Shown here piece after piece: positions 56,094 to 57,500 of a DNA stretch of 64,000 nt (positions are counted from its first letter, which is position 1; each line of letters starts with the position of its first letter). A program made the position numbers and the translations under genes. The notes beneath the pieces are model-generated. The model was not told the origin of the DNA. It searched no databases and worked only from the letters and a program-made list of their open reading frames with translations. This DNA is from a virus: IMG/VR virus record IMGVR_UViG_3300047550_006186, one strand, 5' to 3'.

Positions 56094-57500
56094 ATGGAGA
56101 GCATGATGAACACAAAACAAAAGATTGTAATTCTAGGATTTGGCAGCATTGGAAGTGGATTGCTTCCTTTGCTGCTCAAACATTTTACAGCCCAAAATAT
56201 ACTGATCATTGGTGCTGACAAGCGTAACATCAACATCAGTGCCAAATATGGTGTTGGTCATATCATAATTGAAATAACTCAACAAAACTATCAACATGAA
56301 CTGTCAAGGCATCTCAACAAAGGTGATATGCTGGTAAACTTGAGTGTGAATGTGAGCAGTCTAGCACTGGTCAAATTGTGCAATCAACTGGATGTATTGT
56401 ATTTGGACACCTGTATTGAACCCTGGTCTGGTTATTACACAGACACAAGTCTGCCTCCAGAAAAAAGAAGCAATTACAGTTTGCGCCAGGATATCCTGGA
56501 TTTGAGGCAACAATGGCAGGATCAAGGTGCGCCTGCGGGTGCAACAGCCATCATGGCTCATGGTGCCAATCCTGGCTTGGTAAATCATTTTGTCAAACGT
56601 GCATTGATCCATGTAACAGAAAAACACAAACCAGAACTATTGAAAACCCCTCCCCAAACACGGAGAGAGTGGGCCACCCTAGCCAAAGACGTGGGCCTCA
56701 AAACAATTCATATTGCTGAAAGAGACACCCAAACACCACAAACTCCCAAAATAGTGGACGAATTTGTCAACACTTGGAGTGTGGATGGATTCATAAGTGA
56801 AGGGTTGCAGCCCAGCGAAATCGGCTGGGGGACTCATGAACGTCATTGGCCACAGGATGCCAATAGATTTGCCTGGGGATGCAAGAGTGCAATTTGGCTG
56901 AGCAGACCAGGCTGTGTGACTCAGGTGAGAACCTGGACACCACAAGAAGGTGCTTTTCATGGATGGATCATCACACACAATGAAAGCATCAGCATTGGTG
57001 ATTATTTCAACCTTTATGATTATCAGCCCACAGTGCATTATGCTTACCATCCTTGTGATAGTGCAGTTCTCAGCATGCACGAACTAGCAGGCAAGGGATT
57101 TGTAGAGCAGAGCAAACAGAGATTGATTGTGGACGAGGTCACCCAGGGAGTAGATGAGCTGGGAGTATTGTTGATGGGAGATTTTGGCGCATATTGGTAT
57201 GGAAGCTTGTTGGATATTGATACAGCCCGCAGTCTAGCCCCCTACAACAATGCCACCAGTCTACAAGTGGTTGCACCAGTTCTGGCTGGAATTTTGTATG
57301 CTGTGGAAAATCCTCAGCTGGGAATCCTAGAAGCTGATCAATTGCCTCACGAACTGATAATGAAAACCACTGATCCCTACATGGGCAAGCTGGTGGGTGA
57401 GTGGACAGATTGGACGCCCCTACAAGATCGAGCTAGATTGTTCCCTGAGGACATTGATCCTACCGATCCTTGGCAATTTAAGAATTTCAGAGTCAGCTAG
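56094..57500 (+). CDS. hss: Homospermidine synthase-like (saccharopine dehydrogenase-like NAD(P) Rossmann family)
   Basis: N-terminal KIVILGFGSIGSGLLPLLLKHF; 468 aa matches bacterial/chlorovirus HSS length. Confidence 0.6.
   Translation: MESMMNTKQKIVILGFGSIGSGLLPLLLKHFTAQNILIIGADKRNINISAKYGVGHIIIEITQQNYQHELSRHLNKGDMLVNLSVNVSSLALVKLCNQLDVLYLDTCIEPWSGYYTDTSLPPEKRSNYSLRQDILDLRQQWQDQGAPAGATAIMAHGANPGLVNHFVKRALIHVTEKHKPELLKTPPQTRREWATLAKDVGLKTIHIAERDTQTPQTPKIVDEFVNTWSVDGFISEGLQPSEIGWGTHERHWPQDANRFAWGCKSAIWLSRPGCVTQVRTWTPQEGAFHGWIITHNESISIGDYFNLYDYQPTVHYAYHPCDSAVLSMHELAGKGFVEQSKQRLIVDEVTQGVDELGVLLMGDFGAYWYGSLLDIDTARSLAPYNNATSLQVVAPVLAGILYAVENPQLGILEADQLPHELIMKTTDPYMGKLVGEWTDWTPLQDRARLFPEDIDPTDPWQFKNFRVS

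Follow-up and report, generated by a model that had tools for sequence, protein, structure and literature searches.

The viral DNA record IMGVR_UViG_3300047550_006186 of IMG/VR (64,000 nucleotides; hereafter the window, meaning the whole stretch that was analysed) carries on its plus strand, at 56094..57500, an intact open reading frame (ORF) of 468 amino acids encoding a homospermidine synthase (HSS) of the bacterial type. We consider, with a probability of about 0.88, that this gene encodes an active enzyme and represents an auxiliary metabolic gene of a huge T4-like phage with a genome of roughly 0.4-0.5 Mb. This reading is built on family membership, an intact active site, the phage context of the gene, its long conservation in a clade of phage sequences and its co-occurrence with a gene for agmatinase. 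The novelty lies in a large, diversified and hitherto unrecognised phage HSS clade of independent origin and, more modestly, in its pairing with an agmatinase. The system itself is of a known type: one more entry joins the auxiliary metabolic genes on record, and the understanding of HSS or of viral polyamine metabolism is unchanged.

Sequence, fold and active site of the homospermidine synthase

A first-pass annotation of the window had proposed an HSS-like gene and quoted its N-terminal Rossmann segment. Both the position of the frame and the segment proved exact, the latter (KIVILGFGSIGSGLLPLLLKHF) corresponding to residues 10-31 of the ORF and including the GxGxxG motif as G15-F-G-S-I-G20. 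The arginase-fold gene (2063-3052), the amidoligase gene (42230-43657) and the GGCT-like gene (52682-53119) on which it had also drawn were likewise found where it had located them. The HSS ORF is not a chance frame, since its best PDB match reaches E 2.4e-145 over residues 8-467 (phmmer) and 8000 database homologs were retrieved at E <= 1e-10. A Shine-Dalgarno-like GGAG, read directly in the sequence, lies at 56096..56099 on the plus strand, with a 6-nucleotide spacer to an ATG at 56106. Because this spacing suits the ATG at 56106 and not the one at 56094, the inner ATG is probably the true start; the resulting product of 464 amino acids would have the same length as P0001, a metagenomic homolog that is 97% identical. 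The exact protein sequence had no existing record in the look-up, and megablast of the DNA between 54000 and 60000 against GenBank phages returned no match.

The 14 best PDB sequence matches of the protein were all HSS, covering residues 8-467 with E values of 1e-125 to 1e-145. The enzymes of Legionella (2ph5, 2.4e-145), Blastochloris viridis (4plp/4xq9, ~4e-137) and Pseudomonas (6y87, 1.3e-124) were found in this way, and identity to the solved HSS was about 49-51% over the full length. Matches to other proteins started at E > 0.2, the best saccharopine dehydrogenase appearing at E 0.5. The Pfam search gave the superfamily domains PF03435 (Sacchrp_dh_NADP, residues 11-146, 5.9e-31) and PF16653 (Sacchrp_dh_C, residues 157-436, 6.2e-27), and no family specific for HSS. 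No HSS model was returned by the NCBIfam scan, in which matches to glutamyl-tRNA reductase and carboxynorspermidine synthase were far under cut-off, the equivalog for the latter reaching 14.6 bits where its cut-off is 800; the PHROGs scan assigned no family to the HSS, nor to the agmatinase, the amidoligase, the TilS-like protein and the vault-like protein of the window. Since the Pfam domains are named for 'saccharopine dehydrogenase' and an HSS family came back from neither NCBIfam nor PHROGs, such phage genes will tend to be mislabelled in automatic annotation.

An AlphaFold2 model of the protein was obtained from a 38-sequence alignment, with a predicted local distance difference test (pLDDT) of 86.4 and a predicted template modelling score (pTM) of 0.89. 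When the PDB was searched with this model using Foldseek, the 21 best matches were all HSS, with template modelling (TM) scores of 0.87-0.90 and, for 2ph5, 4xq9, 4plp and 6y87, root mean square deviations of 2.2-3.1 Å. Scores were lower for carboxyspermidine dehydrogenase (0.61), lysine dehydrogenase (0.56) and saccharopine dehydrogenase (about 0.52), at 10-14% identity. Carboxy(nor)spermidine dehydrogenase, lysine 6-dehydrogenase and saccharopine dehydrogenase thus share the superfamily fold and the Pfam domains with the window enzyme, but are remote from it (sequence E >= 0.5, 10-14% identity, TM 0.5-0.6) and shorter (345-445 residues). Bacterial HSS (EC 2.5.1.44; 4PLP/4TVB, 2PH5, 6Y87) have in common with it the two-domain architecture of Rossmann and Sacchrp_dh_C domains and the length class, whereas the window enzyme is phage-encoded and differs from the B. 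viridis enzyme (BvHSS) at three positions described below. Taken together, the PDB sequence ranking, the NCBIfam score, the fold and the HSS residues bear out the annotation's choice of HSS over carboxynorspermidine or saccharopine dehydrogenase; neither dehydrogenase was among the top matches and the residues specific for HSS are in place.

In BvHSS, N162, E210, W229 (cation-π), E237, H296, E298, Y323 and D361 have been proposed as substrate-binding or catalytic residues, whereas V93, D94, V115 and E117 form the ionic slide and Tyr123 the track-and-trace loop (Krossa et al. 2016, PMC4725965). The numbering offset was taken as the one at which each of the 17 named residues agreed with the BvHSS chain, and the positions were then mapped via the phmmer alignment. 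All eight catalytic or substrate-binding residues are present in the window HSS, as N159, E209, W228, E236, H295, E297, Y316 and D354, and each was invariant or changed in one sequence among 52 phage-clade and 69 cellular sequences. V85, E109 and Y115, which belong to the ionic slide and track-and-trace loop, are also conserved, as are S235, Y318 and T388. Three entry or second-shell positions of BvHSS are changed in the window enzyme, D94 to N, V115 to C and E232 to D, and each of these variants also occurs in cellular HSS, N94 and C115 being frequent there.

These three changes could be taken to indicate an enzyme that has kept the HSS fold with a shifted substrate range (spermidine as aminobutyl donor, N-(4-aminobutyl)cadaverine or other unsymmetrical triamines, or the catabolic direction), homospermidine then not being the relevant product. 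Such an explanation invokes the donor promiscuity of HSS towards spermidine. It is in line with the BvHSS pocket and side pocket, which fit diamines longer than putrescine at lower rates (Krossa et al. 2016, PMC4725965), and with a gene context that looks catabolic around P0059, a member of the sister clade. However, the differing positions vary likewise in cellular HSS, with C at position 115 in 53 of the 69 sequences and D at position 232 in 61 of them, and N94 is also found in the HSS of phage phiRSL1, which is cited as biochemically functional (Li et al. 2023). Only two alignment columns show a near-fixed difference between the phage and cellular clades, neither of them at the active site, and a putrescine-making agmatinase co-occurs with the gene. 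A substrate shift therefore appears unlikely, and nothing in the aligned residues suggests neofunctionalisation of the window HSS.

Phage context and evolution of the gene

In a large database, at least 49 clusters (90% identity), all metagenomic, were found at 65-97% identity to the window HSS; identity then steps down to 55-62% for named HSS of the alphaproteobacterial type. In a neighbour-joining tree made with no bootstrap, the 65-97% group and the HSS of the IMG/VR contigs L006-L008 formed one clade, which was sister to the cellular sequences, and the HSS of phiRSL1 and of phage Motura were far outside it. The sampled clade members have a phage-like gene context, and the sister-clade member P0059 has a cellular one, with ABC-transporter, aldehyde dehydrogenase, aminotransferase and amino-acid oxidase genes. 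As judged from these relationships, the window HSS is an independent and old acquisition by the phage lineage: independent because the phiRSL1 and Motura enzymes are only 36-42% identical to it, less than alphaproteobacterial HSS (56-62%), and lie far outside the clade in the tree, old because the clade spans 66-97% identity and the G+C content (GC) of the gene, 0.453, is near the window mean of 0.449. A recent horizontal transfer was ruled out by composition, both GC and GC at third codon positions (GC3, 0.435) being those of an average window gene.

HSS is already known from viruses, namely chlorovirus PBCV-1, phage phiRSL1, where it is functional, phage Motura and Imitervirales, and a survey of viral polyamine genes reported it in only two phages, together with a single phage homolog of agmatinase (Li et al. 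2023). The clade described here represents a third independently acquired phage HSS lineage, in freshwater phages of 0.4-0.5 Mb. The Ralstonia phage phiRSL1 and the Achromobacter phage Motura are likewise jumbo phages with a bacterial-type HSS as auxiliary polyamine gene. They differ from the window phage in that hss adjoins gss, the glutathionylspermidine synthetase gene, in Motura, with no gss beside the HSS gene in the window, and in that neither gave a tblastn match for agmatinase, which the window phage possesses. We also observed a second, unrelated viral HSS lineage on the IMG/VR contigs L010, L011 and L012 (122-330 kb), whose enzymes are 45% identical to the window HSS and which have no gene other than HSS in common with the window.

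The window comes from the genome of a huge T4-like phage in an uncultured freshwater lineage, as deduced from its rIIA/rIIB pair, phage-type genes and ORFans and from its synteny with viral contigs and with lake-metagenome contigs of 168-485 kb. The rIIA (phrog_612, 1.4e-131) and rIIB (1.8e-69) genes are adjacent, and the best full-length matches of rIIA were to Rhodobacterales phages and to an uncultured 595-kb phage, at 32-35% identity. A virion-structural-protein-like gene was detected with PHROGs at 19348-20718, and the window also holds a holin-like gene, ClpP, HNH and I-TevI homing endonucleases, four tRNAs and many ORFans; no capsid, portal or terminase gene was seen within it. Homologs of the HSS with 66-73% identity lie on IMG/VR contigs and on the lake-metagenome contigs, and L006-L008 carry syntenic homologs of the window. 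Synteny concerns DUF4337, DPBB, cREC_REC, agmatinase, rIIA, rIIB and PolIII-alpha genes at one end of the window and, at the other end, a 168-amino-acid ORF and GGACT, followed by HSS, a PP-loop gene and a vault-like gene. The related freshwater contigs of 420-485 kb are dominated by ORFans and encode ribonucleotide reductase (RNR), gyrase, Thg1 and a CCA-adding enzyme.

Several genes of bacterial type in the window (sigma-70, a PolIII-alpha fragment, an OmpA-like barrel, several TnpB/IS605 genes, NAD salvage), as well as the alphaproteobacterial origin of the closest named HSS homologs, would also fit cellular DNA, that is, a chromosome, a plasmid or a degraded prophage region in which HSS is a housekeeping polyamine gene. 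This is very improbable in view of the rIIA/rIIB pair, the dominance of ORFans, the HNH and I-TevI endonucleases, the related contigs listed in IMG/VR and the syntenic 420-485 kb contigs with the gene set just mentioned. Moreover, no ribosomal or core housekeeping operon was seen in the window, and the HSS clade stands apart from cellular sequences in the tree; the gene context of the sampled sister-clade member is clearly cellular.

Agmatinase and the route to homospermidine

The putative supplier of putrescine is an agmatinase of the SpeB type, encoded on the plus strand at 2063-3052, 53 kb upstream of HSS. The protein matched the Pfam Arginase family (1e-78) and passed the cut-offs of the NCBIfam models NF002564 (312.4 bits, cut-off 302) and TIGR01230 (211, cut-off 174.3), whereas the arginase and HutG (formimidoylglutamase) models scored under cut-off. 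Its best PDB match was E. coli SpeB (7lol, 1.2e-55), and alignment to this structure indicated that the Mn-ligand motifs are intact: GGDH (H110), DAHCD (D133, H135, D137) and DIDCLDP (D224, D226). Agmatine is the probable substrate. On the JGI contig Ga0480368_0000003 (485,281 bp), the agmatinase homolog P0164 and the HSS homolog P0032 occur together, and for a second pair of clusters, P0150 (agmatinase) and P0023 (HSS), the longest contigs are both 461,985 bp long, from which we infer that they lie on the same contig. Agmatinase and HSS travel together in this phage lineage, unclustered.

Phages require polyamines to replicate and to neutralise the DNA that they package. We infer enzymatic activity of the HSS, a flux from agmatine and a physiological benefit for the phage, which would be connected as follows. 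Agmatine would come from a host arginine decarboxylase (ADC) or from a phage gene outside the window, since no decarboxylase was found within it. The phage agmatinase would hydrolyse it in the infected cell to putrescine and urea, and the phage HSS would convert putrescine into the triamine sym-homospermidine. By analogy with the B. viridis enzyme, NAD+ bound tightly to HSS would oxidise putrescine to an enzyme-bound 4-aminobutanal or imine with release of ammonia, a second putrescine would form a Schiff base with the bound intermediate, and the NADH from the first step would reduce this Schiff base to sym-homospermidine. The additional triamine would be a polycation available for translation, for replication and for condensing or packaging the phage's genome, about 0.45 Mb in size. 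The phage can probably, judging by its gene content, turn host agmatine into polyamine.

Some observations weigh against this route. In the PDB search with the agmatinase, two other ureohydrolases, proclavaminate amidinohydrolase and guanidinobutyrase, fell behind E. coli SpeB by no more than about 4-5 orders of magnitude. The agmatinase and HSS genes are separated by 53 kb in the window and by about 275 kb on Ga0480368_0000003, so that they form no operon. No arginine or ornithine decarboxylase (ODC), whether PLP-dependent or pyruvoyl-dependent, was found in the window, of which about 70 ORFs were compared with Pfam, NCBIfam or PHROGs and the leftover frames inspected by eye, and the host may itself already make homospermidine. 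Among the same ORFs there was also no S-adenosylmethionine decarboxylase (AdoMetDC), spermidine synthase, gss or polyamine acetyltransferase, and no decarboxylase was present beside the agmatinase in four relatives. The idea that HSS completes a pathway started by the agmatinase therefore holds in part: the agmatinase is real and co-occurs with HSS in relatives, but the two genes are far apart and the ADC step is absent from the window.

A 131-amino-acid ORF at 1667-2062 (plus strand), which abuts the start codon of the agmatinase, was considered as a small pyruvoyl (SpeD-like) arginine decarboxylase and rejected; it encodes a cREC_REC (cyclic-phosphate processing receiver) domain instead. Homologs of this gene were seen directly upstream of agmatinase on contig L021 (9672-9998, with a gap of 2 nucleotides) and 5.6 kb upstream on L014 (4090-4422).

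A route through ADC, agmatinase and HSS exists in Alphaproteobacteria (PMC13625781). The alphaproteobacterial speB / ODC-like ADC / hss cluster, as in Rhodophila globiformis (JBC 2026, PMC13625781), follows the same logic of agmatinase and then HSS, and the closest cellular sequences to the window enzyme are alphaproteobacterial; unlike in this cluster, the phage genes are dispersed and their ADC partner was not found in the window scans. Multi-step routes ending in HSS are also encoded by viruses: PBCV-1 uses ADC, agmatine iminohydrolase (AIH), the amidohydrolase for N-carbamoylputrescine (NCPAH) and HSS, and Imitervirales use arginase, ODC and HSS (Li et al. 2023). Here, in contrast, agmatine would be converted to putrescine in one step by agmatinase, and not by AIH and NCPAH or by arginase and ODC; the window has no decarboxylase, and the host is bacterial. 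The 64-kb window does not contain a complete arginine-to-homospermidine gene set like that of PBCV-1. In a tblastn search of the current phage collection, one more annotated agmatinase was found, speB of Microcystis phage MaAM05 (32% identity), and no phage record had both agmatinase and HSS. Our literature search on homospermidine in jumbo phages, or on agmatinase as a phage auxiliary metabolic gene, found only Li et al. (2023), and in the literature open to searching no phage is described with the two-step module from agmatine through putrescine to homospermidine. The agmatinase and HSS constitute a concrete and easily testable enzyme pair.

Neighbouring genes and other features of the window

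The gene directly after HSS encodes a PP-loop ATPase resembling the N-domain of TilS (57788..58420, plus strand; the mechanical ORF begins at GTG 57716), with matches to Pfam ATP_bind_3 (1e-30), TIGR02432 (116.8, cut-off 93.6) and PDB 1wy5 (7e-14), but without the C-terminal domains by which TilS binds tRNA. There is no tRNA-Ile(CAU) among the four tRNAs of the window. The PP-loop gene is kept immediately downstream of HSS in L003/L004, L006 and L007. Between the HSS stop codon and this gene, a sigma-70-like promoter match, TTGACA-17-TATATT (11/12 positions), is found at 57509..57537 on the plus strand; this consensus match suggests that HSS and the PP-loop gene may be transcribed separately. 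In the contigs L003 (11447-12247), L004 and L005, an ATP-grasp gene of the R2K clade (PF14243/PF18299) was observed between HSS and the PP-loop gene, an arrangement that recalls the hss-gss pairing of phage Motura. The R2K gene was sought in the window and is absent, and L006 has only a remnant of it (6440-6505).

The position of the R2K and PP-loop genes could indicate that HSS feeds a conjugation, in which the polyamine would be ligated to a carboxylate or a base by the R2K ATP-grasp, the PP-loop protein or the amidoligase, the hss-gss pair of Motura serving as the model. An Amidoligase_2 and a GGACT gene in the window could be added in its favour. We consider this quite improbable, because R2K is missing from the window, HSS and the PP-loop gene have the promoter-like site between them, and the neighbours of HSS differ on the more distant 485-kb phage; the amidoligase and GGACT genes are 12 kb and 3 kb away on the opposite strand, and conserved order in related phages is by itself no proof of functional coupling.

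A further reading starts from TilS, which adenylates C34 of tRNA-Ile and attaches lysine to it. By analogy, HSS and the TilS-N-domain protein would form a unit attaching polyamine to a tRNA or DNA base, to give a nucleoside like lysidine or agmatidine, and the R2K ATP-grasp of the relatives could be an alternative polyamine ligase. This proposal rests on gene order only, and it is extremely unlikely given the promoter-like site and the different HSS neighbours on the 485-kb relative.

The first-pass annotation had further suggested that a glutamine synthetase (GS)-like amidoligase and the GGCT-like protein might add or remove gamma-glutamyl groups on amines. The amidoligase (42230-43657, minus strand, about 12 kb from HSS) gave a single modest match, to Pfam Amidoligase_2 (3.1e-7, residues 203-370), no NCBIfam family and no PDB sequence match below E 0.78; no similarity to PuuA or glutamine synthetase structures was detectable. 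The GGCT-like assignment of the GGACT/AIG2 protein (52682-53119, minus strand, about 3 kb from HSS) is sound, with matches to Pfam GGACT (1.3e-12), human GGCT (1e-12) and phrog_2520. Nothing found in this analysis links either gene to polyamines, and both lie on the strand opposite to HSS; this part of the annotation is unsupported. In phages, GGCT and amidoligase genes have been read as serving the modification or recycling of peptidoglycan peptides (PMC5498523).

Directly upstream of HSS and divergent from it lies an HNH homing-endonuclease-like gene (55220..56032, minus strand; Pfam HNH 2e-4, GC 0.367). Since the places at which its homologs lie vary among L003, L006 and L008, it is a mobile neighbour and not part of the polyamine pathway. 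Farther downstream, a vault-like protein of 843 amino acids is encoded at 58961-61492 (plus strand); it has major-vault-protein domains, with matches to MVP_shoulder (3.8e-20), Vault_3, Vault and Band_7/SPFH and to no NCBIfam family. The composition of this gene is strongly deviant (GC 0.628 and GC3 0.855, for a window GC of 0.449), and its homolog at the same position in L006, 73% identical, is much less skewed (GC3 0.60).

An OmpA-like outer-membrane β-barrel protein is encoded at 41689-42189 (plus strand) and also in L001. Together with an LpxC gene in the relative L014, it leads us to regard the host as Gram-negative, and the host may, though the indication is weak, be alphaproteobacterial. 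A DUF1194/VWA protein (30439-31044, plus strand), considered with the OmpA-like gene and the LpxC of L014, suggests a Gram-negative host as well.

Other genes of the window include a full-length sigma-70 family factor of 474 amino acids with regions 1.2, 2, 3 and 4 (26987-28411, plus strand) and a fragment of PolIII-alpha. An NAD salvage block (21588-24953, plus strand) is composed of an NMN adenylyltransferase-NUDIX fusion, NAMPT and a weak phosphoribosyltransferase-like ORF, and an ADP-ribosylglycohydrolase is encoded at 37360-38286. At least four TnpB/IS605-OrfB genes with a Cas12f-like TNB domain are present (39727-40920, 48676-49794 and 50182-51375 on the minus strand, and 63063 to the end on the plus strand), as are two TnpB fragments (25022-25483, minus strand; 31298-31606, plus strand). 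A serine recombinase (Resolvase; 36708-37310, minus strand) adjoins a 438-amino-acid ORF with no family match. Finally, a heme oxygenase (25515-26114) and a ferredoxin-dependent bilin reductase (26114-26743) are adjacent on the plus strand; these two auxiliary metabolic genes for bilin pigments form a pair that is typically found in cyanophages and some oceanic phages.

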